A stretch of DNA of 41,668 nt. It comes from Folioceros fuciformis. Lineage: Eukaryota. Positions 1 through 41,668 of this stretch are shown here, in pieces. The stretch is taken from assembly GCA_049999805.1 (NCBI GenBank), contig JBNGIO010006409.1:1-41668 (forward strand). The letters run 5' to 3'. The position numbers were made by a program, and so were the translations under genes. Below the pieces are notes generated by a model. The model worked only from the letters and a program-made list of their open reading frames with translations. It had not been told where the DNA came from and did no database searches. Numbering within the stretch: position 1 is the first letter of the stretch; the number at the start of each line of letters is the position of its first letter.

Positions 1-2107
1 GGATTTTCTCTCTCTCCGAGTCGTCCCTACCCGACTGTTTTCTCGCGCTTTCCCTTTTGCGCTTTCCTTCCTTGGTTCTCCACAAAATAGCCTCTCACCC
101 TCAGGATCAAACGCGCACACATATGAACAGCAACAATCTGCCGGTCGCCTTCCACCCGTGTGATTTCACACTCTAGGTACACCCTCTGCAGTCTCAAATC
201 AACTTCCTCAAAGTCTCTCCAGTCTCATCGCGACTAGTTACTCATACACACCACGTCTCGTTACACATTACTCACCTCGCTTCTAGGGTTTCTCCGGCTT
301 CGTTCTCCACTCACCAGTTTTCGATATACATTCTCCTCGTCTCTGGTTACTCGCTTCTCCTCTTTCTCACACACGCGCACCCTCGTGCTTCTTCTTATCC
401 AATCCTCCGTCTTCTTTCTCAGCAATGCCCCTCCTGGGCTTCCATGAACATTGAGGAATGGTGAGGTACCGGAGCTAAGGGAAGAGGGACCTCTTGCACT
501 CCGAACTCGCGGATTTGGCTCCGACACCCACACCACCCACGTGACCACTCCGAGGATAGCTGGGGAGCTTCTCTCCCACTCGGCGAGGCTCCTCCTCCCG
601 ATTCGTCCCCGGACCTGATCACGGAGCGCCCACCACCTACACCCGCACCCCAAGTTGCTACGTGCGCTCGCTTGCCTGGACCTCCTGTCCAGCAATAGCC
701 ATCGCTAGGTTCCTGCAAGGTCGACTGCTCGGTTGGTGTTTTGCTACTTCCATAGGCCTTCAAACCGGCCTCTTGTACACGGTGATGGCGGTTTTTCCGC
801 CATAAAGTCTGTCAGGCAAGGGGCTGCGCTCTTAAATTTCTGAGCGACTTGGGTCCGAATAAAGCACGCTAAAAAAAACTATTCTAGCCTGCATTTACTA
901 TCGCCCTGTCCTACGCCGCTGGCGGCTTCCTCCTGGCCTTCGCACGTCACCCCTCGCTACTCCTCCTCTCGCTCTTCTGCCCCTCCGTTGATCCGGCAGG
1001 TCCTCCCAAAGGATCTTCACATCACTGCTGCTGCTGCTGGGCCTGGCTGGCGGTGCAGGTGGGTCCCGCCACTATGGTCCACCACGCCTCTTCAAGGACT
1101 CTAGCACCAGCCCCCCTTCCTCCTGTTGGTCGCGCCCGTAGACCCTCCTGACCAACTCCAAGTTCCATTCATGGGGTCTGCCTCTGATCCCCTCCTCGCG
1201 TACGGACTCTATTAGCCTCAGGGCGCACTCCCTAACCAGCTGAGGTGCTGCATGGTTCCACTTCTGGGTCATAAAAGTCAGACCCAGCTCTGCCACCAAT
1301 TTTCCTGCCCTGACTCTCCAATGCTCCATGTTGGGCCACATAAGTAGGTCGATTTGGGAGACAGGAGGTCCCCTCTCCTGTCTAGAGGCTGCTGCTCCAG
1401 GGATCAGTTCAGGCCCCGACCTCATCCTACCTGTCCCCCTCCTCTCGCGCTCGGACTCAGAACTCTTCTGTCCTGGTCGCGCTCTGGCCCTTCCTCTGTT
1501 CGACCAGATCCCTCCACCGCTTGCGCCTTGGAGGTCTTCCACTCCTCTGCGCCTGCTCGACCCTTACGCCCTGCGCCGTCTGTCCCGTCGTCCTGGCGAT
1601 TTCGCCTTCCTCAGCCACTTTACGCTTCAAGTTACTCCCGCTCCCCACGCTTCCGGATACTGGACAAAGCTCCCCTTTCTCTAGGGTTTTAATACCCTGC
1701 CTGCTTTCTCTTCTTACTGCCCATCGGGCTACCACCAGTCGTTCCTCCGGCGACGGTTGCCCTGCCGGCTACCGTCGCCCCGTCGTCTCGGCCCTTACTT
1801 TGGCCTACCTTAATGTTCTCAAGGACTCGAGGGTCAGGGAGGCACTCGCTGCTTCCTCCTTCCTCCTTGTCCCGATCTCCAGTACACCCCAAACCCCGAA
1901 GCCCAAGGTGGACTTTCGGTATAAACACCCTGGTCTTACTCGCTTACTAAGCCGATTCGCTTGTCCCTTCACAAAAAGAATCACAACCTGCTCATTCCGT
2001 CGCTCAAAATGGGGATTCCGAAAGTTTTTTCCGTTCACAATATCCTGGTATAACCTGGTATCACTTAGGTGGTAGATAACTACGAGTTCAATATGGGATA
2101 ATCTACA
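1..2107. mobile_element. Distal part of long solo LTR 3 (complete copy at 38239-40708)
   Basis: Ends ...GGGATAATCTACA at 2107, followed by CTATC. It matches 38602-40708, where the TG start and near-TSD are visible. Confidence 0.7.
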
Positions 2108-2112
2108 CTATC

Positions 2113-2164
2113 CTAAGTGTTGTATGCTCTTAATAACAATTCAGTTAGAGCTTGATTTCTAACA
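2113..2164 (-). mobile_element. Outer tip of the Copia C 5' LTR, inserted into the RT of Copia A
   Basis: Ends TTCTAACA (minus strand TGTTAGAA) exactly where Copia A RT (LDIKTTF) is cut. Same junction at 40765. Confidence 0.65.
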
Positions 2165-3412
2165 AAATGTTGTCTTGATGTCAAGTTGCATTAATTCATA
2201 GTCATGGTGAGATGCTAAAGCTACAAGAATCCTAAGTGAGGTTATCTTAAGTATATGACTAAAAGTTTCATTATAATCAAATCCGTACTTTTGAGAATAT
2301 CCCTTTGCCACTAGTCTAGCTTTATATCTTTCTATGCTACCATCAGCATTTAACTTAATTTTAAAAGTCCACTTAGAGCCTACTAATTTTCTATCCTTAG
2401 GTAGACTAGTTAGGGTTCAAGTCTTATTAGCTTGTAGGGATTCTAATTCTAATTTAATTGCCTTTTTCCAGTGTTCCTTTTATGTGCATGTCATGTCTTC
2501 GTGATAATTGGCTGGAACAAATTGATCTATGGCTGCATGGAGGCAATAGGCTAAAGTGTTCTTAGGGTCCCGCCAATTAGTGGGGGAATATCTATTAATT
2601 TTACTTGCATTATGTCTTTGAGGACGCCTGCCTCTTGTGTCAACGGGGTTGTCTTGTTGTGGAGTGTCCTCAATGTCCTCGTGAAGAGGATCTTCAACAG
2701 CTTGAGTATATGTAGGTTGAATGATGGAGTTAGGATCATTATTTAAATTCAAATACAATTTCCCATTTGCTTTTGGGGTCCTCGGTCGAGGGTGAGAGCC
2801 GGGCATCAAGTTGTGTGGCCGAGAGTCGCCCCGTGTGTCTATCTCAAATGCTTGGTAGAAAATACTCGTATCTACCGGTTCATGATGGCCGTGAGGGCAC
2901 GCTCCCGAGGATGTGCCGCCGTTGTGCGGATCTGGATGGCTAATTGGTTGCTAGGTGTGTGCTTCTTGCCGTGTGTAGACGTGTGGGCCTACTGTTGATG
3001 AATGTGTGCCTGCTGAGTGCCCTCCGTGCTGGAAATGTCGTTGGCTATCCTCATCCTGGAGCGCTTCGGGCCTGCTATTCCTCATGTCGATTGGAGCTAA
3101 AGATGCTAGAGGCCGAGGACGCTTCTACAAGTAAGGAGGGGTCGAGCTCGTTGTCCATAAAATCGCCGAAGAAGATTGATGGAGTTGCTGCTGCAGGCTG
3201 AGGCAGAGGGCCGGGCTTTGGTGCAGGTGTGGCTGGTGGCACGGGCTGGGCAGGTGGCTGTGGTTGAGCCTGTTGGTGAGGAGCTAGGAGATTGGGTGGT
3301 TTGGAGTCATCTTCGTCACTATCCTCAGGCTGTGCAGTGGTGTGGCTGGAGGATTCTCCCACTACAAGGTTGTCCGGCATGTCCTCAAGGAATGTTACAT
3401 CTCGGGAATAGG

Positions 3413-5699: not shown

Positions 5700-8600
5700 T
5701 TGAGGAAGAAAGTCATCGTAGAACTCCAACCTGGTGAGGAACAGAACAAAGACATCAAAGCAATGGTGAGGCGTTTGCAGATGATGAGATATGAGCATTG
5801 GGAGCGTCAACGAGGTCGATCGAGTGGAGAAGCTCAAGGGGGAGAAGAATACCCGTTCAAACCGAAGCCCCAGCTCGACAAGGAGTTATACCAGAAAATC
5901 AAGACCACAACGTTCGACGGAAGTGCCAAAGATGCTCAAAGTGTGCATGACTGGTTGGACAAACTCAACAAGTACCTTGTAGCCTCTGACAAAGACGATT
6001 TGCAAAAGATCTCGTTCTACGTGATGTCGCTTGAAGGATATGCCTACCGTTGGTGGCGCTAGAGAGAAAAACAGGTGGACCTCGGCATGGAACCGCCTGT
6101 GTACTCCTGGCCAGTCCTCAAGTAGCTCTTCTTGGAACAGTTCCTACCAGTGAATCATCGCAGAGACTTGTATCAACAATTCCGAAAGATATTCCAACAA
6201 GGTAGTGTACAAGAGTAATGTGACAAGTTTCTCCAACTCACACTTGACATGCCCAGGCTGGATGAGGAGCAAAAGATCGAGAAATTCATCGACGGAGTGA
6301 AATTCAACATGAGAGCGGATGTGAACCAACCCTCCAAGCCTAAGTGGAACAAGACAGCTAGCACGTCATACAAGAAACCAACTTTCAAAATACTGACGGA
6401 GGAGGAGAAGAAGGGATACAGTGAGAAGAGGAAATGTTTCACTTGTATGGCACAAGACCACGGTTCAAAGAACTGCCCTTTCCGCAAGGACTTCATCAGC
6501 TGGTTGAGAGAAACTGGGAAGACCACCAGAGTGAGCCAACCAAACCCAAACCCTCCCAAGAGCGGACATGCCATCAACACAACCGAGGTCAGTACCCATG
6601 CCATAGCTGCAGTGATCTCAAGGAAGTCAAATCTCCAAGAGGGTTACCTTACCCACGTGCCCATCAAACTAGAGGTTGGTCTAGAAGGTGCCTGAGCCAC
6701 AGCTCTGCTAGACTTTGGTGCCAATCATCATTATGTGTCGAGATCCGCTGATGAAAAGGTTGGCCTGCAGATCCGTACCTCATGACATGTGTCCACAGTA
6801 GTGACAGCGTTGGGCGAGCATGAAACCAGCAAGGAAGAGTGGACTGATGCACTAGTCACCTTCCCAGGTGGTTTTGCAGAAGTCTTCAAGCTAACTGTAA
6901 TGCCGTCCTTGTGTCATGACATCATTATTGGTAAGCCCTGGCTGGCCAAGCATACCCACACATTAGACATAGACTAGTTGTCTAACATAGTGAGTCTTAC
7001 AAAGGGGGACAAGACATACACCATGCAGGGTGAACAGTATACCCCCGACAAACAGTTGTTTGCAGTATCTGCTTTCAATATAGCCATTGCCTCTGGCAGG
7101 TTCATGTACATAGCTAAGCTGAAAAAATTCTTACCCCTAGAAGGAACCCCAGAGTCCAGAGCTGTAGAAGCCAAGGCTCATGAGGAACTCCTACCACCCA
7201 CCATGAAGTCACAACTACAGGAGTTCCAAGATGTGTTCACCGAACCAGCAAAACTCCCCCCTAGAAGTCCTATCGACCATGCCATAGAGCTCCTGCCAGG
7301 CCATAAACCCATCAGTATTCAGCGATACCGTACGTCAGCCACTGAAAACAAGGAAATAAAAAAACAAGTAGGTGAACTTCTACAGAAAGGGTTTGTATGC
7401 CCTTCAGTGTCCCCCTTCGGAGCCCCAGTCCTTCTTGTTGGCAAACCAGATGGTGGTTGGCGACTATGCATTGACTATCGAGGACTCAACCGGGCCACAG
7501 TCAGAAATGTCTACCAGATGCCGGGGATCAATGAGATCCTAGACCAACTTCACGGTGCAAAGTGGTTTACCAAGATTGATCTGAGATCCGGCTTCCACCA
7601 TATCAGGATCAAGGAAGGGGATGAGTCTACAACCGCCTTCCGTACAAGACATGGCCACTTCGAGTTCAGGGTCATGCCGTTTGGCTTGACAAACGAACCT
7701 TCAACATTCCAATGTCTCATGCAAGACATCTTACAACCATTGTTGGGGCACGGCGTAGAAGTTTTCCTCGATGACATCCTCATATACACACCTGACCTAG
7801 AGAAACATTACACCTTGGTCAGAAAGGTACTTGAGCTGCTACGTGCAAACAAGTTGTTGGCCAAAAGAAGTAAGTGTGACTTCATGAGGCAAGATTGTGA
7901 ATACCTGGGCCACATCATTAGTGCAACATGTATCCGGGTAGATCCGCGCAAGGTCAAAGCCGTGGTGGACTGGTCCCTACCCCAGGATATCACACAAACT
8001 ACGTGGGTTCCTGGGCATGGCCGGATTTTACCGCCGCTCCATCCAAAGTTTCAGTAAGATAGCTGTTCCCCTAACGGATGCCCTCAGGCACTCAACCACC
8101 AAACCCTTACAATTGGGGCCAGTGGCCATCCAGGCATTTGAACAGCTCAAGCAAGCCCTTAGGTCGGCTCCCGTGCTAGCGGTGGCAGACCCCCATGCCC
8201 CATACACCCTGCACATAGACGCATCAGATTTTGCTATGGGTGCAGTACTGTCACAACAGGGTCGAGCTATTGTCTACGAATCCAGGAAGTTGCAAGGGGC
8301 ACAGTTGAATTACGCTATACATGACAAAGAGATGTTGGCGATCACCCATGCTCTCAAGGTGTGGAGGCCTTACCTCTTAGGCCAGAAGGTGGTGTGTCAC
8401 ACAGACCACCACTGCTTGCAACATTTCTTCTCACAACCCAACCTCAACTCCAGACAACGCAGGTGGGCCGAATACCTGGAGGATTTTGACCTCAAGATCA
8501 AGTATGTCATTGGGACTTCTAACGTGGTCGCAGATGCCTTGAGCAGGAGAGCCTGCACACTCATGACCACACAGTCCCAAACGGTGCAGTTAGTCCGGGA

Positions 8601-12600: not shown

Positions 12601-14160
12601 GGCCTACCAAGCGGGGAGCAAGGGTGGCCCTCGTGAGACGGCTGGGGGCAGGATTCGGGAGTCGGGCAGCGACCTGCGGCCTGGCTACAGGATCCTAAGC
12701 AAGGAAGACAGCCGGATTTGGGTTGTGGTCTTGGGCGGATCCGGCTGACTGCAGATGCAAGGGAAGGTGCCTGAGCCCTGGCTGATGGTTAGCTGTCTGG
12801 ATACGGGTTGCAGGGCACTAGATGAGTAGATCTGCTGGGTCATGGGCCTTGGCCCACAGAATGGAGGGAAGGGTCAGAAGACGGTGGGGCTTTGAAGGGT
12901 TGCAGGATGATTCGAGGGAAAGGGAGGAGAGGAGAGTGTTGAGGGGCACTTCGGATTCTTGCTAGTTGTGAGAGGCTAACAATGTTGGATAGAGGGCAAC
13001 CAGCGGTGTCCAAGGGGGTAACGGGCAATTAGGTGCAGGTTAGAGTTAGGCTTGGGCTAAGTTGCAATCAGAACTAGGCCTGACTATATTTAGGTCTGTT
13101 TAGTTTTAGGTCAGGCTTAGATTAGGTCTAGGTCAGGCCTAGATTAGGTCTAGGTCAGGCCTAGNNNNNNNNNNTAGGTCAGGCCTAGATTAGGTCTAGG
13201 TCAGGCCTAGATTAGGTCTAGATCAGGCCTAGATTAGGTTAGATCTGGGTTAGACTTAGGCTAGGCCTAGGTTAGATTTGGGTTAGATTTAGGTCAGATC
13301 CAGGTTAGGTCATACCTAGGTCAGGTTTAGGTCAGAATTTGGTTAGGTCAGAGAGAGGAGGTAGGGTAATTGATTCAGGTTAACCATAGTAGACAGAGAT
13401 AGAGGGTAGGCAGATAAGAGGGGAGACCTGCCATTGAGAGGGGGCGGTCTATGGCGTGATATCCCCGGACTTTGTGGGTAGAACTCCTGGCTTAGGGCGC
13501 TGAGCCGGTTGAGGATGACCCAAAGTCTTGATTCCCCTTGCCACTAGGGGAACGTGGGGATCCCGGGGCTGTTAAGATCCGTGTGGCCGGATCCGCAAGG
13601 GCTACATGAATCGCAGGTTGGCTGAAGTGAAGGAACAGGACCGTGAGCTGGGGGGGGCTATCCAGTCCTAGATCCACACTATGCTTGAAGGCTGCAAGAA
13701 GTGAAGCCATTGTGTCCTAATTTCCAGGGGGGGAAAAGCTGAAGAAAAGGGAGGGAGAGTTGGAGTGAAATGCATAGAAGTGAAGAGTGAGCTGTTGAAG
13801 TGCAGGAGTGTGTGTTGAAGTGGGGGGTGGAGGACTGAAGTGAAGAGGAAGGGACTGAAGTGGGAAGTTTGCAGAGCTGAGGTGAAGGAGAAAGTGGCTG
13901 AAGTGGAAATCAAGAAGAGCTGAAGGACTGAAGAACAGGAGTGTGAGTTGGGCGAGCTGACTTAGGGGGTAGGCTAGGCTTCTAGCCTTTTTGTTGTCAG
14001 TGTATGGACAGACCTATAGACCGGCTGATAGGTAGGAGTGTGATAGGTAGTGTTCCTTGGCACTAGTTCACTCCCTTGGGAGCGAATCATAGGACTGCAA
14101 CGACAATAGGGGAATGTGTGGCCCCTTAGGTGGTTCTTGGGTGCAAGAAATCATTCCACA
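9601..14160. mobile_element. Long solo-LTR-like insert 1 (4,560 bp including a gap) inside the Gypsy integrase-chromodomain linker
   Basis: Termini TGTGGA...TCCACA, perfect TSD GGAGG (9596-9600 and 14161-14165), no recognisable retroelement coding domains. Confidence 0.88.
13100..13350. repeat. 22-bp tandem repeat TTAGGTCTAGGTCAGGCCTAGA with degenerate flanks
   Basis: Visible tandem copies on both sides of the gap at 13165-13174. Confidence 0.9.
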
Positions 14161-16540: not shown

Positions 16541-17330
16541 AAATGGACACCGAGATCAATGTACTCGTCGCTTCACAAATAAATCCTTCTTACAGACAGA
16601 CACTTTCGAAACTTTGCCTCTAATTACAAAATAGGTGTAGATGTGACAATAATGAGCATCTTGGCATTCATGTATGTATTATTTGTTGTAGGTTTCAAAA
16701 CATTCACTCATGACCATGGTGGTGTAGGGTTATTAAAGACCAATGTGTTTAGACTAATGTGTTTAGTCTAAGATTAGTGTCTAGTTAAGTATTCATTAGT
16801 TTAGATTAGCTTAAGCTAATCTGTAGGAAGCTTCTTGCGCAGCTTCTTGTGCGCTTCTTGTGAAGCTTCCTAGGGAGCTCTTCTAGAGGGTATAAATACC
16901 CCCTTGAGCTCCCTTGCATATTAAGACTCATTGTGAGAGTGTGACCTCTCTTTCTCCTCTCCTCCTTGCCTCCTCCTCTCCTCCTTCACCATGTAGCTTC
17001 TGGAGCTATCCTTCAAGTGGAACAATGCACATGACATTGGAGCACCATGGACCATTGGATCACTAACAGTGTGGTTTAACTTCTTCCAAACATGGCATAA
17101 GGAAACCTTGTGGCCAAACTCCTTACACACCTAGCAAAAGGGAACGTGGTGGCTGAACTTCGTACACACTTAACAAAAGGTAACATACGTTATCTACCTT
17201 TTTGGCTAAGGGCAGTTGGAGGCTTAGTGCCTTGGCATGTTGCTATTAAAACAACATCCTACTGGGATTAACATCAATTATTAGGACGAAGCAAACCTCC
17301 ACTGGCCTAGTAAGGTTGGTCGTAAACTAT

Positions 17331-17660
17331 GGAATTAATAAATTGGGACTATTAAAAGTCTCTCTCTGTGTACAATCGGCCGAAGGTGTTACAATTATTG
17401 TTATTATTAATTTTTAATGTTTGATTTGCTCTTTGATTTTAGATTGTAGAAGTGGTAAGACCAAAGTCTATTGCGGTAGCCATTAACTAAGTCTTGGAAT
17501 TAATAAATTGGGACTATTTGAAGTCTCTCTCTATGTACAGTCAGCCGAAGTTGTTACAATTATTGTTATTATTAATTTTTAATGTTTGATTTGCTCTTTG
17601 ATTTTAGATTGTAGAAGTGGTAAGGCCAAAGTCTATTGCGGTAGCCATTAACCAAGTCTT
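17331..17660. repeat. Two-copy tandem duplication of ~165 bp
   Basis: GGAATTAATAAATTGGGACTATT... begins at 17331 and 17496, and the copies are near identical. Confidence 0.92.
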
Positions 17661-18144
17661 AAAGCTTGTGAAAGAAGCTAAACTGCTTATAGGTCTAAAA
17701 GGGAAGGATCATTATCGAAGAAAACTCTAGAGAGGACTTTGACTAGGGTGTGCATGACTAGAGGAGTTATGTCAGATTGACAACTAAGGCAACAACAAGC
17801 ATAAGGAGGACACTTATTTTTTCTCCTTCTTTTGCTTTTTCCTCCTCCCACCAGCCCCTCCCTCTTCTTGTCTGTACACAGGTTGGCTGGTTCTTCATAG
17901 AAGAAATCACTCTAGCCTAACATTTTAGACTTTTCTCCATGCTCAAGCATTGTAACTCATGCACCCATCCATCCACTTGCCCGGTTGGCTGGTTCTACAT
18001 AAACGAAGTCACTCCAACATGACGTTTTAGATTTTTCTCCATGGTCAAGCATTATGTCCCATGTTTTAGACTTTTCTCCATGGTCAAGCATAGTGTCTCA
18101 TGTTTTGGACTTTTAATAGGGTTAATAAAGTCCAATGTGCTTAT

Positions 18145-18680
18145 ACTAATGTGTTTAGTGTAAGATTAGTATCTACTTAAGTACCATTAGTTTAGATTAG
18201 CTTAAGCTAATCAGTTGGAAGCTGTACCATTAGTTTAGATTAGCTTAAGCTAATCAGTTGGAAGCTTCTTGCGCAGCTTACGATGCGCTTATTACGCAGC
18301 TTTTCATGCGCTTCTTGCACAGTTTCCCATGCGCTTCTTGCGCAGTTTCCCATGCACTTCTTGCGCAGTTTCCCATGCGCTTCTTGCGTAGTTTCCCATG
18401 CGCTTCTTGCGCAGCTTCTTAGGTCCTAAGATTGGAAGCTTCCTATGACTCTAGTGGTAATTAGACCCTTGCTCGATGCCAGGACCTAAGACTCTAGTGG
18501 TAATGAAGACTCTTTCTCCTTAGTAGCTTGGAGGACCTAGGACTCTAGTGGTAGTGAAACTCTTAGTCCTAGTAGTAGTGAAGACTCTTTCTCCTTAGTA
18601 GCTTGGAGGACCTAGTGAAACTCTTTTTCCTTACTAACTTGGAGGACCTAGTGAAACTCTTTTTCCTTACTAACTTGGAC
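18145..18680. repeat. Minisatellite cluster: ~23-bp TTTCCCATGCGCTTCTTGCGCAG units, then GACCTAG/ACTCT units; 18145-18280 also repeats 16753-16845
   Basis: Directly visible tandem units. Confidence 0.85.
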
Positions 18681-19059
18681 ACTGATGTTTTACCTACTAT
18701 GAGTAGCCATCAGGGTCAAGGGTAGCCCTAGTGTCTAATCAAGATTTATCAAGATTTATAAATGGACCTAACCTTCTTGATGCATCAAAGATGTGCACGA
18801 GGTTCTTGAGCATAGGAAACAACTTGGCTATGAGGTTCTTGAGCTTAGGAAACACCATAGCATGAGGTGTTTTTTCCTTCTGAAGAGTTGAGGATCTTTC
18901 AAAATAAAATTTTAAGTACAGAGGGCCCGTAGATCCTATCAGAACCCCACGACGGAATAGACCGTGACGTGGACCCCATTTAGCGACCACGGAGGGTGCA
19001 TGCGTGCCCCGTATCACTCCAGAATCCCTAGGCTTCAAGTGTTAAGTCGGCAAAATTAC

Positions 19060-20855
19060 CTGGGCATGATTTTCTGCATACACAAGAGCTCTGCCTCCGG
19101 ACTGGGAATCGATTAAAGTCTCTACAATCTGAAATCGCCGTACCACATGCCGTTCGTTAGTTCACAAAACGTGAACCACACTCACGAAGAATTCCATGGA
19201 GTACAGGACTCTCAAATCTCACCTGACTCATACTCCATTCACTGTCTGGAACATTTTCAATGCGATACGACCACATCTCAGAGGGTGAGACGCTGGCAAA
19301 GTAGTCAAAGCCCAACCCGCCTTTACTGATGGGTTCAGTCAATCCTGGATACTGTGAGGCCTGTGGGAAGTCGCAATCGACTCAGCCAAGAGTGCTGGTG
19401 CTGTGCACACAAGCAATCCAGAATTTGTCAATTAAAAGAAGAGAGGCAGGATTGTGCATACATCCCCTGCAATTGTGACAATGTTCGAGTTGAGCTTGTG
19501 CAGCATCTCATTAGCCAGAACCACATACAGCAATGCATCTCTGTCCACGTATTGATTGCAGTAGCTGCACAACCAGAGAAATGTGAGAAAGAGCGATGAA
19601 GCAGTCTATGTAATTCGACCAACATGGAGCTCGTGCGAGCAATTTCCTGAATGACAGCAGCCTTACTCATTCAAGCCATTTGTGAACTCTGCAAATCCAT
19701 TGTGGTTGTAAAACATGGACTGCAGCGAACGGAAGTGGAAACCATCTAATTGACACTCTTCCACCCACCTGCCATGAGAAAGAAACGTGTGACTTCCAAG
19801 CTACCTTGCTCTAGATGCGAACTGCCTGAGAGAGCAAATTCAAACAAAGCATTCAGAAAGATCAGTCACACTAGAGATCATCGAGGCGGACTAANNNNNN
19901 NNNNCAATAACCACTTCAACTTTGATAAGAGGTCGCGAAGCACTTCGTATTCACCATAGTTGAATATGCGGGTGCCTGGATGTTTGTGACGCCCTCGCCG
20001 TCCTGCAATGCAAGGGTGAACTCAGCTGCTACAGTGAACGGGATGGTGAACGGACGAAAAAACAACCTAAGTTTTCTACACCAATCCTTGCAAGGCAGTG
20101 CACACTAACCATCATGGAAGTAACACTCATTAGCACTATCGAATGAAGAAAGGCCAACCATCTCGTCTGCAGCCGCATGTGAGTGGACCATAGTGTCCAT
20201 GATGAAAAACAGGCCCATTCTTGTTTCATCATGAACTCAAAACATGAGAAACGAAACGCTGACTTGATGTAAACTGGGCTTCAGTAGCAGGCTTGCAAGG
20301 AATGCCTAACGAACCATGGGCACTGTCAACCAGATGTTTGAAATCTTCTGGGGTTCCAAAGCGACTACTTACCGCGAACATATTCGTAACCTGCCCAGTT
20401 GGCAAATTCTACACATTAAATGGGCGCAGAATAATCTCAACGAACCTTCAAACATGAGGCACATGAAGAGCACAACAGGGTTGTACCTTATAGCCAGCAC
20501 TTGCATAGTCTACATGCTCCTGAATACCCATGAGCTGGACAGCGTTGTACCTAGACTTCTTGACAAGAGGAAGAGCCCAATTTGTCATAAAACATGGTTT
20601 CTCAGACTGCAAACTACATACTACAGACATTCTGAGCAGGGCACAAAACAAAGGCAACGAACCACCAGACTCAATCCATACTTGCCTTCGCAGTAAACTG
20701 TTGGAACATTGTTACACCAAGTTCTTCTCCACTTATTCCGACATGACATTCATAAATCCGTAATGGCTGTGGTCTCTTGGGACTCTTGTGCTGCCATTGG
20801 TGCCGCTGTTGAGGTGGATTCCACATACAGGCGCTAAATGTATTACTCCCAACAT
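19060..20855 (-). pseudogene. SBE3: Starch branching enzyme 3 clade (GH13) gene, nine central exons, inverted
   Basis: Spliced exons translate to [62 protein letters not shown]-like; YCNQYVDRDALLYVVLANEMLH; GGLGFDYFASVSPSEMWSY..ENVPDSEWSMSQ; IVETL...YAENHAQ. These resemble Arabidopsis BE1/EMB2729 as remembered. Both gene ends are missing. Confidence 0.9.
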
Positions 20856-21292
20856 CTGAATAGATTGGTTAAGATCAACTTAGCATCATCGTCCATCCCA
20901 CAGAACACATTCACATCCTTTGTCTCAGCAGGTTCAACCTGCCGGATATACAGGTCATTACATCTGCTGCTACAGGCATTAGAAGAACTTTCCTTACAGC
21001 ACACACCAATGCCATCAACATTAGAAGAAACCATCAGTCACAGAGTACAGGGTGTGGTTGATATGCTCACGTGGTTGCAGCGCATTCGCTCAACGTCGAG
21101 AAAGCTGTTGAGAAGGCTACCACGGCTAAAACGAGTATGCACCGCTTGCCGAAGTTGGAAACAAATATAGGAGAACAAATACAGCAGACATTCTCTTTGT
21201 CCATAGTTCACAAGTTGTGAACATTCTTTGTCCATAGTTCACAGTTCACATCCTAATAGTAAAAAAGGTTGCATTGAAATTTATGAGTCATC

Positions 21293-22339
21293 CTAATCTA
21301 TCAGTAAGGGATAGCCTAGAGAGTCAGCTATGCAAACTATTGCCGAAGCTTGAGAAATTGTTAGTGGAAACCTGGATATCTTCCATGATCCATACTGCCT
21401 TTCAAGTTGCGAAAGGACACGAAATGTATCGTCGTCAACATGGGCAGAAAGAATTTTGTACATATCCACTATGGCTCTAACTTGATCATCAATGGATTGC
21501 CAGCCTCCAGAGATCTTGATACACTGAAACAAATTCACATCTGAGGATAGAAAATACCGCCACCAATCAGCTCTGGTTCTTCTACCCTTGGTGTCTCCAG
21601 TTCTGATTCCTCTATCCATGGTGCCTCCATACTTCACCTTCAAGTGTTCTTCAAAGAACTTGAAAATGCCTGTCAAGTTGTTGGTGCCTTTTGCCGTTAA
21701 GAGATCGAATTCGAGATCCCGAATTCTTCGTTCACAGTGAGAAATAGCCTGATCCTTAGACCTCGAAGCTTCTATGGCCATCTGCGCGGTTACCTCCCTA
21801 GCCCTCGAAACTTCTATGGCCTGCTGCACGGCTAGGGAGGCCTCCTGAAAGGCTTGCTCCCTAGCCTGCTGCACGGCTTGCTCACTAGCCCTCGAAGCTT
21901 CTATGGCCTGCTGCACGGCTTGCTCCCTAGCCTCCTGAAAGGCTTGCTCCCTAGCCTGCTCACTAGCCCTCGAAGCTTCTATGGCCTGCTGCACGGCTTG
22001 CTCCCTAGCCCTCGAAGCTTCTATGGCCTGCTGCAAGGATTGCTCCCTTGCCCTCGAAGCTTCTATGGCCTGCTGCAAGGATTGCTCCCTAGCCCTCGAG
22101 ACCTGGATGGTTTCTTCAAGCATCTTGACTGAATCAATGAGCATCTGTTGCCTCTCGGGGTCCTCCTCTGTTCTCAACAGGTTCAACAGAGGGTCCATAT
22201 AGGAAGCTCTAACACTGAAAGCCTTGACATGCCTATCCCGAGCATAATCTCTTCTTGGCATACTCAAGCCCATGAGTGATCTAGAAGCAGAGCCGCTAAT
22301 CGGCACCAGCAAAGCCGCCATAGACAGAGACGCCTGCAT
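21293..22339 (-). CDS. Intronless 348-aa protein: putative organellar transit peptide, repeat coiled coil, unknown C-terminal domain
   Basis: Uninterrupted ATG-to-TAG ORF. N-terminus is Ser/Ala/Arg-rich and ends in VRA|S. The non-repetitive ~140-aa C-terminus is also open. Confidence 0.78.
   Translation of the reverse strand: MQASLSMAALLVPISGSASRSLMGLSMPRRDYARDRHVKAFSVRASYMDPLLNLLRTEEDPERQQMLIDSVKMLEETIQVSRAREQSLQQAIEASRAREQSLQQAIEASRAREQAVQQAIEASRASEQAREQAFQEAREQAVQQAIEASRASEQAVQQAREQAFQEASLAVQQAIEVSRAREVTAQMAIEASRSKDQAISHCERRIRDLEFDLLTAKGTNNLTGIFKFFEEHLKVKYGGTMDRGIRTGDTKGRRTRADWWRYFLSSDVNLFQCIKISGGWQSIDDQVRAIVDMYKILSAHVDDDTFRVLSQLERQYGSWKISRFPLTISQASAIVCIADSLGYPLLID
21760..22105 (-). repeat. 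In-frame 42-bp (14-aa) tandem repeat AIEASRAREQ(S/A)(L/V)QQ with in-frame variants
   Basis: Recurrent GCCCTCGAAGCTTCTATGGCCTGCTGCA on the plus strand. Confidence 0.93.
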
Positions 22340-22424
22340 ACCTCAACCGGCAAAGGCTTTCCGATTCTCCCACTACCTCTCACCCCTCACCCATTTAATG
22401 TCCAGAATTTTGCCAACTGAGCAG

Positions 22425-23675
22425 GTTACGAATATGTTCGCTGTAAGTAGTCGCTTTGGAACCCTAGAAGATTTCAAACATCTGGTTGACAGTGCCTATG
22501 GTTAGTTAGGCATTCCTTGAGCGCCTGCTACTGAAGCCCAGTTTACATCAATTCAGCGTTTCGTTTCTCATGTTTTGAGTTCATGATGAAACAGGAATGG
22601 GCCTGTTTGTCATCATGGACATAGTCCACTCACATGCGGCGGCTGCAGACGAGATGGTTGGCCTTCCTTCATTCGATTGTGCTAATGATTGTTACTTCCA
22701 TGATGGTTAGTGTGCACTGCCTTGCAAGGATTGGTGCAGAATGCTGAGATTGTTTTTTCGTCCGTTCACCATCCCGTTCACTGTAGCAGCTGAGTTTACC
22801 CTTGCATTGCAGGACGGCGAGGGCGTCCCAAACATACAGGCAACCGCATATTCAATTATGGTGAATACGAAGTGCTTCGCTACCTCTTATCAAAGCTGAA
22901 GTGGTGAGTGGATTNNNNNNNNNNCGATGATCTCTAGTGTGACTGATCTTTCTGAATGCTGTGTTTGAATTGCTCTCTCAGGCAGTTCGCATCTAGAGCA
23001 AGGTAGCTTGGAAGTCACACTTTTCTTTCTCATGGTAGGTGGGTGGAAGAGTATCAAATAGATGGTTTCCACTTCCATTCGCTGCAGTCCATGTTTTACA
23101 CCCACAATGGATTTGCAGAGTTCACAAATAGCTTGAATGAGTAAGGCTGCTGTCATTCAGGAAATTGCTCGCAGGAGCTCCATTTTGGTCGAATTACATA
23201 GACTGCTTCCTCACTCTTTCTCACATTTCTCTGGTTGTGCAGCTACTGCAATCAACGTGGACAGAGATGCATTGCTGTATGTGATTCTGGCTAATGAGAT
23301 GCTGCACAAGCTCAACTCGAACATTGTCACAATTGCAGGGGATGTATGCACAATCCTGCCTCTCTTCTCTTAATTGACAAATTCTGGATTGCTTGTGTGC
23401 ACAGCACCAGCACTCTTGACTGAGTCGATTGCTACTTCCCACAGGCCTCACAGTATCCAGGATTGGCTGAACCCATCAGTAAAGGCGGGTTGGGCTTGGA
23501 CTACTTTGCCAGCGTCTCACCCTCTAAGATGTGGTCGTATCTCATTGGAAATGTTCCAGACAGTGAATGGAGTATGAGTCAGGTGAGATTTGAGAGACCT
23601 GTACTGGAATTCTTCGTGCGTGTGGTTCACGTTTTGTGAACTAACGAACGGCATGTGGTACGGCGATTTCAGATT
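22425..23675 (+). pseudogene. SBE3: Second partial SBE3 copy (six central exons), forming the right arm of the inverted repeat
   Basis: AG/GT-bounded exons: [25 protein letters not shown] (22425-22500); MDIVHSHAAAADEMVG; IFNYGEYEVLRYLLSKLKW; WVEEYQIDGFHFHSLQSMFYTHNGF (His at the DGFRFD nucleophile position, typical of the SBE3 clade); DRDALLYVILANEMLH with a 2-bp deletion relative to the left copy; GGLGLDYF. Confidence 0.9.
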
Positions 23676-24160
23676 TCAAGAAGTTGTTCAATTTGGACGG
23701 CCCATTCCCGACAGACAGGGATGCATTGGCTGGGACCTTTGAAAATATCTTTCGTAAAACGGCAAGGATCGATTGTCCAGGTTTGTGATACGACCTTCGT
23801 AGTTCATATGGTCTGAACGAAGTTGGCACTCACCTGGTATTTGGTTGTGCCCAGTGGGATGAACGAGGTTCCTGGTTGTAATCTGGCTTTTGGTTGTGCT
23901 GTGCAGCTACTCTACCAGGACCACCTTGGTCACTGAGGCATTCACCACCGAATGAGCTTGCCAAACTGACAGAGTTCCAAGAAGAGTTGGTGCAGTTAGC
24001 TTCACAGTTGAATGGTGATCACTTGTTGAACAGCTATCCCAACATTGGAAAACTCCTGAACGTGGGGCAAGCGAATGCATACACTCGAGGCCATGGCTAG
24101 ATTCCTGGAGGAGGGTAGGAGGGCACTGCGGAATGGTGGGAATAGCACAATGTTGTAAGG
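23676..24160 (+). pseudogene. NPC1: 3' fragment (last two exons) of a non-specific phospholipase C gene, NPC1-like
   Basis: [25 protein letters not shown]...DCP, intron 23781-23906, then LTEFQEELVQLASQLNGDHLLNSYPNIGKLLNVGQANAY. Matches the remembered NPC C-terminus (KKLFNL..FLTKRDAWAGTFE; LSEFQ.EL.QLASQLNGD). Confidence 0.82.
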
Positions 24161-24298
24161 CTGATGCCATTTGCTTTACCAGTAACCCTCAGATATTTGG
24201 GTCTACCCCTTACGTCGGTGCGTCATGGTAGGATTTGAAGGAACTGACTTGATGCAGTATCCAAACCAAACCGTGGAGTTGATGAGTTAACTGGTCAC

Positions 24299-25836
24299 AT
24301 GGAAAAATGGACGGGATGCCTCCAGCCAGGCCAACTGCTAGACATGCGGTCTCCCCGAGACACCATGTTGAAGCTCATTGCTACCCCACCAAGGGACGTC
24401 GCAGTTTCAAAGTGCTTTGCAGTGGGGAAGACAGGGATTGCATCTGAGCAAAGAGTCCCGGCTCCCAGTAACTTGGGCCCGGATGCAGTTGGGTTTTTTA
24501 AGGAGAAGAATCTCACCTCGAAAGCCTTCCCGCAGTATTTGCGTGAAAGGTACTACTCTCTCAAGCTCTGTATGGCGTATTGTTTTAGTAAACATGAAAC
24601 GAAAGTAGCTGGAGGTGAAAACTGTGGTTGGTTCAGGACTTGGAATTTGAAGCAGACATAGCATAGGAAAAGGGGAAAATTTTCTCCTGAGCTGCTGCAA
24701 TTGTTGTCCAGGTACAAAGCTTTGAAGGACTTGAGAATGCTGATAGCTGAGCAGGATGACAATCTTCTTGCCTTCGCATCAGCGTACGTGACGCTTTGTG
24801 TACCTCCTTTGATGGTCCACAGTGGTGAGGGTTGGGAAGGGGGGATTGACCCGCTAGTATGCATCGCAGATATGAGGCTTCGCCTTTCATGCTGTTAAGC
24901 TTATTGAATGGGCTCCAGGTAAAATTTGTTCTCTTCGTTTTCACTTCTGGTGAACAAGTGCATGCATCCATTTTGTAGTAGCTGCATCCTATATCTTGGT
25001 GTAGAATCAGTCCTGCAGGTGCCTTGAAGTCTCCATTGCCAAACAGTGGCTATTCAAACCATTCCATGTCTTGTGCTTCTGACGCATGCTTTGTCAGTAC
25101 CCTGCCTGACTCAGCCATCATGGTTGCAGCTTCTCGTTTTTGTTCTATTGTTGGGGATTTCAACAACTGGGAACCCAGTAAAGAGTATTCAGGGGAGGGA
25201 TATCTTCGACATGATGATTATGGCTGTTGGAGACTTGTAATTGAAGACAAGCTTCGTGAAGGAGAAAAGCCAGATCTTATAGTAAACGAGTACAGTTACG
25301 ATTAGGATTATGACTTAGGTGATGAGAACCCTGACTGGGATGCAATTTTTGACGAGGCTGACAAGCAATATTGGGAGCCTGGTGAAGATGAGTATATGGG
25401 TGATCCCTTGGTTAAGTGGCTGGAACTACATAGGAAGATTTTTGGAGACAATCCCAATCCCATTTATCGGGAAGAGTCCACAGACACAGAGGAGGAGGAT
25501 GGTTCTGACGACTTTCCTGACTACATCCCCAGTGCTCGAGCAAGATATGAAGCATGGAGAGCAAGCCAGCCTGTCATTGAGGGACAGTTGCCTCCGATTG
25601 ATGTAGTAGATGATGGGAGAAATGTTGAACCGACCTGTGTAGATGACCCTATTTACCGGGCCCGAGCGGAGCGAAAAACTCCTCCAGGTTATTGGAAATA
25701 CCTACGAAGTGGCCGTAAAGCATGGGAGAAGAAGTATATACCTACTGTCGCTCATAAGAGTAAACTACGGCTGTTTCTTCAAACGCCTGGAGGGCCTCTG
25801 GAGCGAATCCCTGCTTGGGCCACGTATGTCTTACAA
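24299..25836 (+). pseudogene. SBE3: SBE3 5' exons (N-terminal region), with an in-frame stop
   Basis: GPDAVGFF...KAFPQYLRER / YKALKDL / EWAP / FCSIVGDFNNW...HDDYGCW..IEDKLREGEKPD / YWEPGEDEY / GRKAWEKKYIP...GPLERIPAWATYV. TAG at 25303-25305. The start position is approximate. Confidence 0.88.
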
Positions 25837-26338
25837 GTGAATAGCTTCTCGAGGGACTTGAGTGCATGGGGTCGTAGAAACCGTAGCAAGCCATTCCCGT
25901 CCATATCTTGAAGACGGGAATGGGATGGCATATTTCCACTGACCTCCCAGCTTTCACCCAGGCTGGAGATGGCCACGCGCAGGTTGTGTAGAAAGATCCC
26001 TTTCACAGCCCACAAGGCAGGTTCTGCCATGAGGTTAGTCGAAGGCCATCATGACGAGTACTTTCACCCAACCCATAAAGCGATGCAGTCTTTGCAACTG
26101 ATGTTGGGTACTGATCCTTGGACATAGTGATGCGAAACCAAGAGATCGGAGGTGCAAGAATAACTCAAACAAGAGCCTGCTGTCTTCTATCCTGCCACCA
26201 TGGCAAATGTCCCCATCACAAGCTCAATGCATATCCTTCGAAACCTCGGCGTGCAGTCTGACCTTCACCTCCTCCACCCGAGTGTGTGTGAAGAGCTGTC
26301 AGTATGTCAATGGCGGGCTTCTCCAGGAATCTGAAACG

Positions 26339-29300
26339 TGTTGGAGAAAACTAGGTTTAAGCACAGCCTGATACCCGTTACCGAATTAGGACAGTTTCAT
26401 AAACTCACTAGTTAAACAGCTTAGCGGTTCGAACAGTTAAGTAGGTTACTCAAGTTACTAATTGATCAATCGTCGTTATAACTAAATACACTTTGTATTT
26501 AAATCGTATCATTAATGCTCGAATCATCAATTCCAAGGGATTCTTGTCCCGCTACATGGTATCAGAGCCCCAGGCTCGTCCCCTCATGGCTTCGCCGTTG
26601 CTTCCCGTCACTGGCGCTGCACACTTCACAAGGATGGGTCAGCAACAATTGAAGAATCCAGCGGACCAGAGATCCTAATCAGGAAAACATGGCAAGGCGA
26701 TGCACCTCCGTGACTTTCACTTCAATACACCGTGCTCCCACTCCTGAAGGGAGATCTTTCATCAACATAGTAGAGAAGCAAATCCACGACGAGCGACTCC
26801 GCCGCCGGTGGACTACGCCAACTACCAGCACACCTATCAGCATTCCAGCCACGGCCGCCCCGATCAAGCCCATCTCTCACTCACACGGATGCACGTACAC
26901 TGCTTCCTCCCAAGCCAGCGTACCTGCCACACCTAAGTACTTGAGAATTCAATTGGACTACATAGAGTCACAACTCGGCCCTGCATATCGCAATCAATCA
27001 AATTCCCTTCTACATACAAATGTAGATCACGCACTCACTCCTCACCTTTTTTGCTAGTCCTAATTCGACGCCCCGCTGCCTTTTATGCCCAAATTTGATC
27101 CGCTCTCCCTTCATACCACAAAGCTCCCTACAAAGAAACTTGCAATTAAATCAGCCATGGCCTCTTATGTCCCTAATCCCACTTCTACGGTGATTAACAC
27201 CACCAAAGTAGAATTTAGAGACTGTGATCGCTTCAACGGAAGCAATTACGATATCTGGCAAATGAGAATCACAGCCCTGTTAGAAGAACATGATCTAATG
27301 TCAATCACATACGGCACTTTGCCACGGCCCTCGCTCACCTCTACCACACCAGCTACCCTTGACCAGATAGCTACATGGGACAAGAAAGACAAGAGGGCTC
27401 GCAACATCTTGATATCTGCGATTGACAAAACAATGCTACAACACACCCAAGGTCAGACGACCTCACATGATGTATGGAAAGCTTTTAATGACATGTTCCA
27501 GGCACAGAGTTCAATGTCTCTAATCAATGCCACAAGTCAATTCTATTCACTGAGGATGAAGGACAGTGAGAGTGTCGAGCAACACGTAAACATCTTGCAG
27601 CCCCTGCGAGCGAAGCTCTCTAGCAGCGGCACCGTCATCACCAAACTTCAAGCAGTAGGCGCAAACGCACCACCAGCCTACACCTTTTCAGACGTTATTT
27701 CAGCATTTCTCGAGAAAGAATCCAGCAGAATCGGCACCTCAAGCAATAATGTTGGGGTAAGCCACGCCCTCTTCACTTCCAGAGGTCGGGGAAATAGGCG
27801 TGGTAAAGGACGAGGAGGTTTCCCCAAGCGAAGAGGCCCACCTTCTCCAAGCTTCTCGGGCTTCCCAAGTCGACAATTTTCACAAAACAGATCATTTGAC
27901 AGAAGATCAGCCAAACGAGCATGTAACTGGTGCAAAAATCTTGGTCACTACAAAAGTGAATGCCGAAAGAAGCAGGCAGGCAAGCCACGCAGAGAAGCTC
28001 CCAGAAACGAGTCTCACCTTACCACAACTACCAAGTCGTCGTCAGCCAGTTCCATCTTAGCAGTCTGCCTCACCCTTACCAGAACAGACACATGTCGTTG
28101 GTTCTTAGACTCCGGAGCCACCACACACATATGTAGCTGTCAAGACATGTTTACCTCCTACCACCCGGTCCTCTCCGACCAACACGTCCTCTTAGGAGAT
28201 GATAGTGCACTACCCATTCAAGGTTCAGGAGAAGTCCAACTGCGTCTTTCTACTGGAGAGCTCCTCACCATCAACAAAGTCCTGCACGTACTTGCAATGA
28301 CCAAGAACTTGCTAGCAGTCCGTAAGTTAGCCACAAAACATGACCTCACCATCACGTTCCAAGGAAACCACTGCACCATCTGTCACAGCAAAGACCCTGA
28401 GAAAATAGCCCTGGCTCACGGACTTCCCTTCAATGATCTTTACCTCTTGAACATCCAATCTACATCACTCTTGGTAGATAGCAGTCCACCAACATCCTCA
28501 AACAAGTCCTTGTTACTGCACTGCCGTGCAAGCCATATGAACCCTAGATACCTTAACATGCTTGCAAACCCCACCATGTATAAGGATCTTGTCAAGCTCA
28601 AAGTTCACAAGGACTTCTTCTGCAAGATATGTCAGTATACCAAGTTAAACCAATCACCTTTCAAAGACCCTTCTCCTACCCATGCCAGACTAGTGCTTAA
28701 GACAATCCACTCCGATATATGTGGACCCATGAGCACAGACTCCTTTGGAGGCCACAGCTATTTCATTACGTTCCTGGATGAATGGAGCAGATATTGCCAT
28801 GTCTACTTCTTGAAGCGAAAGGACGAGGCCCTTTCATGTTTCCAAGACTTTCTTCTCACTGCTGAGTGGCAAACAGGATTTCAAGTAACCACCCTGCGAA
28901 CAGAAAATAGGGGTGAGTACATCAGCAATGCCTTCCAAAGATTCTGCCGCTCTAAGGGCATTCAACAAAAGAACACGGTACCTTATACTCCCTCATAGAA
29001 CCCTTTCGCTGAACGACTGAATCGTTCCTTGTTGGAAATCTTGAGGTCCCTCCTCAAACTCGCAGGCTTAACAAAAGCATACTAGGAAGAAGCTGTGTTC
29101 AATTCCACTTACCTGAAAAACAGGCTTCCAACTAAGGAACTCCCCTGCACTACTCCATTCGAGAGGTGGAGTGGCCACAAACCTAGGGTATCCCACCTCC
29201 ATATTTTCGGTAGGAACCTTTGCCCATATTGCTGCAAAAACCCGAAGGAAGTGGGATGATACAGGTCGAAAGATGTTGTTCATAGGATACTTGGACCAAG

Positions 29301-38238: not shown

Positions 38239-40708
38239 TGTGGGGTTAAAATATGGTACCCAGGGGTACCGTGAGGTCCACACAAGCCCTCTATGTCGTT
38301 GTAGCTCTGGGATTCGATCCCAAGGGAATGATTAGTGTTAAACTACACAGGTTAGCTTCTAAAGTCAATTAGCACCTAAACTCGACTGACCCACGCACAC
38401 ACGTCCAGTGCTCGGTCCTTACCCAGCCCCCTTACTTCTCCCACTAGACGACTCTCCTACCACCCAGTCGCACCAGGGACTACCTCCCCCTAGACTACTC
38501 TTGGTGGCCCACCGGACTACCCTCCGTTCCCCAATGGACTACTATTGTCGTCTTTCGGGCTACCACTCGTGGGTCCCACTCCCTCTCTCTTTCTCTCTCT
38601 AGGATTTTCTCTCTCTCCGAGTCGTCCCTACCCGACTGTTTTCTCGCGCTTTCCCTTTTGCGCTTTCCTTCCTTGGTTCTCCACAAAATAGCCTCTCACC
38701 CTCAGGATCAAACGCGCACACATATGAACAGCAACAATCTGCCGGTCGCCTTCCACCCGTGTGATTTCACACTCTAGGTACACCCTCTGCAGTCTCAAAT
38801 CAACTTCCTCAAAGTCTCTCCAGTCTCATCGCGACTAGTTACTCATACACACCACGTCTCGTTACACATTACTCACCTCGCTTCTAGGGTTTCTCCGGCT
38901 TCGTTCTCCACTCACCAGTTTTCGATATACATTCTCCTCGTCTCTGGTTACTCGCTTCTCCTCTTTCTCACACACGCGCACCCTCGTGCTTCTTCTTATC
39001 CAATCCTCCGTCTTCTTTCTCAGCAATGCCCCTCCTGGGCTTCCATGAACATTGAGGAATGGTGAGGTACCGGAGCTAAGGGAAGAGGGACCTCTTGCAC
39101 TCCGAACTCGCGGATTTGGCTCCGACACCCACACCACCCACGTGACCACTCCGAGGATAGCTGGGGAGCTTCTCTCCCACTCGGCGAGGCTCCTCCTCCC
39201 GATTCGTCCCCGGACCTGATCACGGAGCGCCCACCACCTACACCCGCACCCCAAGTTGCTACGTGCGCTCGCTTGCCTGGACCTCCTGTCCAGCAATAGC
39301 CATCGCTAGGTTCCTGCAAGGTCGACTGCTCGGTTGGTGTTTTGCTACTTCCATAGGCCTTCAAACCGGCCTCTTGTACACGGTGATGGCGGTTTTTCCG
39401 CCATAAAGTCTGTCAGGCAAGGGGCTGCGCTCTTAAATTTCTGAGCGACTTGGGTCCGAATAAAGCACGCTAAAAAAAACTATTCTAGCCTGCATTTACT
39501 ATCGCCCTGTCCTACGCCGCTGGCGGCTTCCTCCTGGCCTTCGCACGTCACCCCTCGCTACTCCTCCTCTCGCTCTTCTGCCCCTCCGTTGATCCGGCAG
39601 GTCCTCCCAAAGGATCTTCACATCACTGCTGCTGCTGCTGGGCCTGGCTGGCGGTGCAGGTGGGTCCCGCCACTATGGTCCACCACGCCTCTTCAAGGAC
39701 TCTAGCACCAGCCCCCCTTCCTCCTGTTGGTCGCGCCCGTAGACCCTCCTGACCAACTCCAAGTTCCATTCATGGGGTCTGCCTCTGATCCCCTCCTCGC
39801 GTACGGACTCTATTAGCCTCAGGGCGCACTCCCTAACCAGCTGAGGTGCTGCATGGTTCCACTTCTGGGTCATAAAAGTCAGACCCAGCTCTGCCACCAA
39901 TTTTCCTGCCCTGACTCTCCAATGCTCCATGTTGGGCCACATAAGTAGGTCGATTTGGGAGACAGGAGGTCCCCTCTCCTGTCTAGAGGCTGCTGCTCCA
40001 GGGATCAGTTCAGGCCCCGACCTCATCCTACCTGTCCCCCTCCTCTCGCGCTCGGACTCAGAACTCTTCTGTCCTGGTCGCGCTCTGGCCCTTCCTCTGT
40101 TCGACCAGATCCCTCCACCGCTTGCGCCTTGGAGGTCTTCCACTCCTCTGCGCCTGCTCGACCCTTACGCCCTGCGCCGTCTGTCCCGTCGTCCTGGCGA
40201 TTTCGCCTTCCTCAGCCACTTTACGCTTCAAGTTACTCCCGCTCCCCACGCTTCCGGATACTGGACAAAGCTCCCCTTTCTCTAGGGTTTTAATACCCTG
40301 CCTGCTTTCTCTTCTTACTGCCCATCGGGCTACCACCAGTCGTTCCTCCGGCGACGGTTGCCCTGCCGGCTACCGTCGCCCCGTCGTCTCGGCCCTTACT
40401 TTGGCCTACCTTAATGTTCTCAAGGACTCGAGGGTCAGGGAGGCACTCGCTGCTTCCTCCTTCCTCCTTGTCCCGATCTCCAGTACACCCCAAACCCCGA
40501 AGCCCAAGGTGGACTTTCGGTATAAACACCCTGGTCTTACTCGCTTACTAAGCCGATTCGCTTGTCCCTTCACAAAAAGAATCACAACCTGCTCATTCCG
40601 TCGCTCAAAATGGGGATTCCGAAAGTTTTTTCCGTTCACAATATCCTGGTATAACCTGGTATCACTTAGGTGGTAGATAACTACGAGTTCAATATGGGAT
40701 AATCTACA
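38239..40708. mobile_element. Long solo LTR 3 (2,470 bp) inserted in the Copia C 5' LTR
   Basis: TGTGGGG...ATCTACA, near-TSD ATATC/CTATC (4 of 5), shared terminal motif. Confidence 0.75.
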
Positions 40709-41668
40709 CTATCCTAAGTGTTGTATGCTCTTAATAACAATTCAGTTAGAGCTTGATTTCTAACAAAATGTTGTCTTGATGTCAAGTTGCATTAATTCAT
40801 AGTCATGGTGAGATGCTAAAGCTACAAGAATCCTAAGTGAGGTTATCTTAAGTATATGACTAAAAGTTTCATTATAATCAAATCCGTACTTTTGAGAATA
40901 TCCCTTTGCCACTAGTCTAGCTTTATATCTTTCTATGCTACCATCAGCATTTAACTTAATTTTAAAAGTCCACTTAGAGCCTACTAATTTTCTATCCTTA
41001 GGTAGACTAGTTAGGGTTCAAGTCTTATTAGCTTGTAGGGATTCTAATTCTAATTTAATTGCCTTTTTCCAGTGTTCCTTTTATGTGCATGTCATGTCTT
41101 CGTGATAATTGGCTGGAACAAATTGATCTATGGCTGCATGGAGGCAATAGGCTAAAGTGTTCTTAGGGTCCCGCCAATTAGTGGGGGAATATCTATTAAT
41201 TTTACTTGCATTATGTCTTTGAGGACGCCTGCCTCTTGTGTCAACGGGGTTGTCTTGTTGTGGAGTGTCCTCAATGTCCTCGTGAAGAGGATCTTCAACA
41301 GCTTGAGTATATGTAGGTTGAATGATGGAGTTAGGATCATTATTTAAATTCAAATACAATTTCCCATTTGCTTTTGGGGTCCTCGGTCGAGGGTGAGAGC
41401 CGGGCATCAAGTTGTGTGGCCGAGAGTCGCCCCGTGTGTCTATCTCAAATGCTTGGTAGAAAATACTCGTATCTACCGGTTCATGATGGCCGTGAGGGCA
41501 CGCTCCCGAGGATGTGCCGCCGTTGTGCGGATCTGGATGGCTAATTGGTTGCTAGGTGTGTGCTTCTTGCCGTGTGTAGACGTGTGGGCCTACTGTTGAT
41601 GAATGTGTGCCTGCTGAGTGCCCTCCGTGCTGGAAATGTCGTTGGCTATCCTCATCCTGGAGCGCTTC
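38602..41668. repeat. Long direct repeat, copy 2 of 1-3067, including the Copia C/Copia A junction and Copia A RT (40766-41668)
   Basis: Identical ORF set and matching sequence at offset 38,601. Confidence 0.97.

Follow-up and report, generated by a model that had tools for sequence, protein, structure and literature searches.

Contig JBNGIO010006409.1 of the Folioceros fuciformis assembly GCA_049999805.1 (positions 1-41,668, hereafter the window, i.e. the whole stretch of 41,668 nucleotides that was analysed) carries on its minus strand an open reading frame (ORF) of 348 amino acids (aa), at 21293..22339. We put at about even the chances that this ORF is a copy of a lineage-expanded plant family which combines a coiled coil with a HEPN-like domain and is involved in genetic conflict. 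The plan of the family would be a transit-peptide-like leader, a coiled coil of variable length and the HEPN-like domain, which would take the HEPN four-helix fold. A motif Y-x3-S-x-H-x-H and a Glu in helix 2 may together form a site of non-canonical type that binds or cleaves RNA. Copies may be assembled by the coiled coil, as HEPN enzymes usually work as dimers; the leader would direct this subfamily to plastids, and genetic conflict, either defence or a selfish element, would drive the diversification of the family. The window copy itself would come from the recent amplification of a chimeric unit, in which an inversion brought the ancestral 3' flank of the gene to a splice donor of a gene resembling starch branching enzyme 3 (SBE3).

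A predicted HEPN-like fold in the C-terminal domain

Structural models and searches place the HEPN-like domain at about residues 205-348 (21296..21727, minus strand). Its modelled order is helix 1, helix 2, a helical insert, helix 3, a beta-hairpin and helix 4, and in HEPN proteins too the insert falls between helices 2 and 3 (PMC3710099, cited here and below from part of its text). Conservation was counted in alignment A2, which has 16 members. Tyr294, Ser298 and His300 are invariant (16/16) and His302 and Lys305 are found in 15/16. The motif Y294-x3-S298-x-H300-x-H302 (21434..21460, minus strand) reads x-L-S-x-H-x-H from the column two past Tyr294 onward, and its two His sit at the end of helix 3 (model helix 91-107). 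In helix 2 (model helix 30-50) position 227 (21659..21661, minus strand) is Glu in 14 of the 16 members and position 231 is Glu or Asp in all of them. In the models, the conserved His ending helix 3 and the conserved acidic residue of helix 2 thus stand where HEPN proteins carry their RX4-6H motif and their own conserved acidic residue, respectively (PMC3710099).

No Arg is conserved 5-7 residues ahead of His300 or His302, i.e. there is no canonical RX4-6H, and for this reason the domain is not classed as a canonical HEPN RNase; some HEPN families retain the His without the Arg (PMC3710099). The profile searches do not support the HEPN assignment: no HEPN model was found at E <= 1 in Pfam (16-member profile) nor in PADLOC, NCBIfam and PHROGs (18-member profile), and the profile search of PDB sequences returned nothing credible (best E 0.53). 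Foldseek gave no match at E <= 0.001 against pdb (two models) or the viral set. A homodimer predicted without alignment scored 0.00 with an uncertain fold, and is not counted as evidence. Overall, the resemblance of the C-terminal domain to HEPN proteins, a class of defence enzymes that cut RNA, is weak.

It could also be an unrelated small helical bundle, whose conserved His, Cys and Tyr would coordinate a metal or contact another protein in a non-enzymatic coiled-coil adaptor or decoy. This seems rather unlikely because the HEPN fold class fills all top five rows of the structural searches for two sequences that share only about 27% identity, and because the invariant polar residues land at the position of the HEPN motif.

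The window copy departs from the family at three of the conserved sites (Asp302, Thr305 and Lys227) and is the sole one of the 16 members without the His at position 302 and the Lys at 305. If the family is an RNase, the loss of Glu227, His302 and Lys305 has probably compromised catalysis in this copy, which would be either in early decay or a partner without catalytic activity; the clustering of its losses at conserved sites is not significant (p 0.12). A previous sequence-only reading had presented the ORF as an intact gene among ruins. This description is misleading, as no other copy of the subfamily has changed as much as that of the window.

Start, leader and repeats of the ORF

The claim that the frame is open stands: neither stop codon nor N occurs from 22339 to 21293, and when the bases of the gap-free 3 kb around it were shuffled 1000 times, the longest ATG ORF reached 238 aa (mean 91). 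Every motif cited in the sequence-only reading was found in the translation. Met1 is private to the window copy (0/6 siblings aligned there) whereas Met7, at 22321, is present in 5/6, indicating that the family protein begins at Met7. At the other end the window ORF terminates about 5 codons before the stops of its siblings.

Residues 7-47 (22199..22321, minus strand) form a transit-peptide-like segment confined to this subfamily, in agreement with the N-terminus proposed from the sequence. They are rich in Ser (17%), Ala (15%) and Arg (15%), contain no Glu, and are nearly invariant over 7 copies, with few variable sites; they end in VRA-S, which we take to be a cleavage-like motif. From this composition and conservation, targeting of the subfamily by the leader is plausible, and we lean slightly towards it. 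The DNA of the leader region matches 8 places only in the genome, all of them family copies, and this search found no donor gene for the leader. A short predicted helical segment that varies among copies follows (residues 48-80; 22100..22198, minus strand) and precedes the A/E/Q/R-rich repeats noted earlier. The latter correspond to a coiled-coil-like tandem array of 8.3 copies of a 42-nt unit (21753..22099, minus strand). The repeat tract of the window copy is the longest, with 128 aa vs 31, 59, 78 and 86 aa in four close siblings, and changes in repeat number preserve the frame in the three complete copies.

A multi-copy family and its transcripts

The sequence-only reading did not include two features of the ORF, its multiple copies and its position between the arms of a 1.3-kb inverted repeat. 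In the genome searched (87 Mb, 7240 contigs, also containing SBE3-like, PPR and long terminal repeat (LTR) retroelement sequences) the C-terminal 146 aa gave 26 matches and a distant paralog used as query gave 42. With both queries combined the family occupies at least 32 contigs, of which near-identical pairs, e.g. C6154/C6155 (99.6%), may be assembly duplicates. The close subfamily comprises 11 loci with 78-100% aa identity: three complete open copies (the window, C6350, and C6479 at 15.4 kb), two frameshifted ones, and others that have repeat gaps or run past the contig end. More distant subfamilies share 25-47% identity, and in all subfamilies a coiled-coil-like tract stands ahead of the common domain. 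One distant subfamily (C3018, C6498, C5779 and C5521) has been duplicated in cassettes of 2.3-3 kb that are surrounded by Copia elements, and on C6281 (4289-6164) a 250-nt inverted repeat (72%) flanks a 170-nt fragment of the domain.

Outside this genome, a phmmer search of 1.84 billion representatives, which probably missed remote relatives as its query was a single sequence, found one relative, P0002 (28% identity, E 1.4e-4). This protein of 197 aa, a nameless single-member cluster from one Logan contig, resembles the family in having a coiled coil and the same domain with Y-x3-S-x-H-x-H (27-28% identity) but, unlike the window protein, has no leader. P0002 was also the only relative among 5837 candidates of a word-indexed protein search; such searches found none among 70 candidates for residues 195-348 and none among 8000 longer proteins scored. 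The ESM Atlas had no usable match to the domain (best 0.79, for P0002), tblastn on plasmids gave no match to the family, and no credible match to it came from Pfam, NCBIfam, PHROGs, PADLOC or PDB sequences. Loci with the motif pattern were retained as candidates in metagenomes (0/296 and 4/123) and genomes (2/124), and all six were then discarded (best profile E 0.21). These searches, which are weak for remote relatives, revealed no prokaryotic or viral relative, and the earlier suggestion of a horizontally acquired gene is not supported. Similar proteins may occur in fungi and green algae, as loosely suggested in the sequence-only reading.

Transcription was assessed with run X1, presumed to be RNA (none of the listed runs is recorded as such) and used as contigs only; these contigs drop rare variants, and X1 may derive from another individual. 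They cover all 30 bins of 18800-26500 with GT..AG joints, and carry spliced SBE3-like exons in the arms of the inverted repeat. Two other runs placed 0 (X2) and 1 (X3) contigs on the region. An X1 contig of 427 nt joins the 3' flank of the ORF (21070) to an SBE3 exon at 20896, showing that splicing of sibling transcripts takes place beyond the stop codon. The ORF, called intronless earlier, is so in its coding part but not beyond it. In a table that covers only sites differing from the window, X1 agrees with the siblings C5469 and C3567 at 15/16 listed differences. At position 21436 the entire X1 depth corresponds to the His codon and not to the window allele, and the splice acceptor used in X1 is mutated in the window copy. 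X1 thus indicates transcription of siblings, not of the window copy. The reading of the ORF as a member of a real, transcribed family without a known name, with coiled-coil repeats and a folded C-terminal domain, is supported.

Selection on the domain

Among seven close copies nearly all changes in the domain are non-synonymous. With kappa profiled on a coarse grid, and with about 50 changes, possible alleles among contigs and recombination as caveats, the ratio of non-synonymous to synonymous rates (dN/dS, omega) of the domain is 7.5 (2dL 13.9 vs omega = 1, p 2e-4). It is 8.8 without the window copy (p 0.003) and 6.7 after adding two frameshifted copies. The SBE3-free C6479 copy was excluded from these tests as an outgroup; when it is included the gain over omega = 1 drops to 2dL 3.7, its pairwise ratios being 0.5-0.8. 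The N-terminal part has an omega of 2.0, not significant, and the control, a co-amplified SBE3 exon (7 copies, 177 codons), has an omega of 0.9. Pairs from older subfamilies give 0.20 and 0.34. Low values in older subfamilies and high ones in the SBE3-linked branch point to an old conserved family in which this branch has diversified fast.

Could the subfamily be a neutral passenger of the segmental amplification of SBE3 fragments, its ORF open through youth and the window copy a nascent pseudogene? The unit is indeed amplified together with broken SBE3 pieces, two close copies are frameshifted, the window copy has lost conserved residues and the downstream splice acceptor, X1 lacks the window allele at His302, and a spliced 3' untranslated region generally invites nonsense-mediated decay. 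Such a passenger is nevertheless distinctly unlikely, given the omega of the domain (6.7-8.8) compared to that of the co-amplified SBE3 (0.9), the divergence of the window copy, about twice as high in the domain (4.3-5.5%) as in the 3' flank (1.5-2.7%), and the frame maintained through repeat-number changes in the three complete copies. Neutrality may hold for the window copy and yet be false for the family.

SBE3 fragments and history of the locus

The left arm of the inverted repeat (19126..20424, minus strand) consists of SBE3-like middle exons and introns, as seen from the repeat, its translation and splice joints; its motifs make an SBE3-like gene the probable source. The right arm (22390..23675, plus strand) is the same segment, 93% identical, and abuts the upstream region of the ORF. 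Behind the 3' flank of the ORF the SBE3 middle part is fused at a splice donor (19033..21070, minus strand), other sequence cutting in at about 19033. An SBE3-like 5' part with a weak CBM48 match (E 0.018) lies at 24915..25836 (plus strand), parted by inversion from its continuation. It is followed at 25837..26338 (plus strand) by the segment that forms the 3' flank of the ORF in the SBE3-free C6479 copy, i.e. the reciprocal inversion product. The ORF and the inner arms are a single gap-free piece; each arm has a 10-N gap, which leaves the orientation of the loop relative to the outer flanks uncertain. The earlier claim of broken neighbours is correct, as SBE3-like fragments and LTR retroelement pieces adjoin the ORF.

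Arm DNA matches 20 places in the genome and the SBE3 5' exon 10. The parental SBE3 order, with a 25837/21070 junction, is retained on C6479 and C4709. C6479 also bears an SBE3-free copy of the gene, with 25836-26338 behind it. The window has both reciprocal junctions, which have in common GTGA at the SBE3 splice donor. In the simplest history, which we infer, SBE3 was first partly duplicated beside the gene; about 21071-25836 was then inverted, and the resulting unit was amplified. SBE3-like fragments are amplified with varied junctions (window 19033-26338 and at least 18 other contigs), and SBE3 3' exons occur only in C6479 and C5930 among the loci examined. Read-through combined with the inverted repeat could yield siRNAs against SBE3.

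An origin of the ORF as cargo of a terminal inverted repeat (TIR) transposon (Pack-MULE or foldback), as a retrocopy or by recent horizontal acquisition would account for its intron-free coding region and its position between 1.3-kb inverted arms that recur in several contigs; a distant pseudogene does lie between 360-nt TIRs. For this locus such an origin is largely refuted, and we hold it to be extremely improbable. The arms are spliced SBE3 exons with their introns, the left one running on into the next SBE3 exon; the flanks beyond the arms are common to copies, so that the unit is not a TIR element; no target-site duplication was found at the arm ends (19126/23675). Deep in-genome divergence with saturated dS argues for long residence, and the searches returned no prokaryotic relative. 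A Pack-MULE or other TIR transposon was accordingly rejected at the locus, and the mobile cargo of the sequence-only reading survives loosely, in the sense that the copy moved with a segmental amplicon. Its retrocopy is not supported by the matches listed, themselves a lower bound, among which there is no intron-bearing or exon-split parent, the strong matches spanning the domain in one frame or frameshifted; no poly(A) was seen after the stop of the ORF. The pseudogene mentioned above, a stop-riddled distant family member, is enclosed on C1279 by Pack-MULE-like TIRs of about 360 nt (1-358 and 6158-6498, 89.6%) at the contig ends.

Elsewhere in the window, 1-3067 and 38602-41668 form a long direct repeat, identical over the 300 nt compared and with the same ORFs, either an LTR pair or an assembly overlap. 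A satellite with a 5-6/11-nt period, TTAGG-like units and an N gap inside lies at 13085-13363. Nested LTR-like repeats of 23, 43, 102 and 165 nt occupy 16725-18650 and are common to C5469, C5651, C803 and C310. A spliced gene remnant with no Pfam match (23676-24900) separates the right arm from the SBE3 5' part.

Comparison with known systems

If the fold holds, the family is a eukaryotic HEPN-like family missed by all profile libraries searched, with a new active-site variant and under diversifying selection at present; if it fails, what remains is an expanded orphan family whose selection signal is clear. In the most elaborate form of the proposal, a plant family of Arg-less HEPN RNases would have one plastid-directed subfamily under strong positive selection, with catalytically dead copies that have long coiled coils, like that of the window, as dominant-negative partners; the RNase/inhibitor system, encoded in the nucleus and directed to an organelle, would serve defence or segregation distortion. 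We regard this version as quite improbable. A plastid-imported HEPN RNase would add, if true, a new kind of gene to those that act in plant defence or conflict, and the natural motif-intact and motif-dead copies are a ready test pair. Among the open-access papers listed by our searches we found no description of a HEPN protein with a chloroplast transit peptide, nor of such a family in hornworts or other plants; the alignments published with PMC3710099 could include a related family.

The Spok meiotic drivers of Podospora (PMC6660238, also cited from part of its text) suggest by analogy a selfish poison-antidote family, in which motif-intact copies would kill and motif-dead copies, like that of the window, would confer resistance. 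Like Spok, the family is multi-copy and has variable N-terminal coiled-coil repeats ahead of a nuclease-like domain; it is dispersed in repeat-rich DNA and strongly diversified, and nuclease-dead Spok alleles still confer resistance (PMC6660238). Spok differs by its PD-(D/E)XK nuclease fold, its kinase domain and its fungal host (PMC6660238). The likeness is one of analogy, with neither homology to Spok nor a kinase domain, a transit peptide is unexpected in such a driver, and HEPN defence-gene expansions leave the same signature (PMC3710099), all of which makes a poison-antidote family very improbable.

Eukaryotic HEPN expansions include KEN in monocots and Oikopleura, Swt1-like in Daphnia and PaREP in Caenorhabditis, and the authors interpret lineage-specific stand-alone expansions as defence genes (PMC3710099). 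The part of PMC3710099 that we cite does not describe, among these expansions, a plant family with a coiled coil and a transit peptide, and ours has no Pfam match to the Arg-less or eukaryotic HEPN families. Like the Arg-less PaREP1/8 and c2405 families it retains the His in the absence of the Arg (PMC3710099). Both structural searches are topped by entries of the HEPN superfamily, namely HI0074/1jog, 1wwp, the HepT-type toxins 5yep and 8xdj, and the HEPN regions of Cas13 and AbiA. The likeness of the plant domain to this superfamily lies in its predicted four-helix layout, with a helical insert between helices 2 and 3, in the His that ends helix 3 and in the acidic residue of helix 2.
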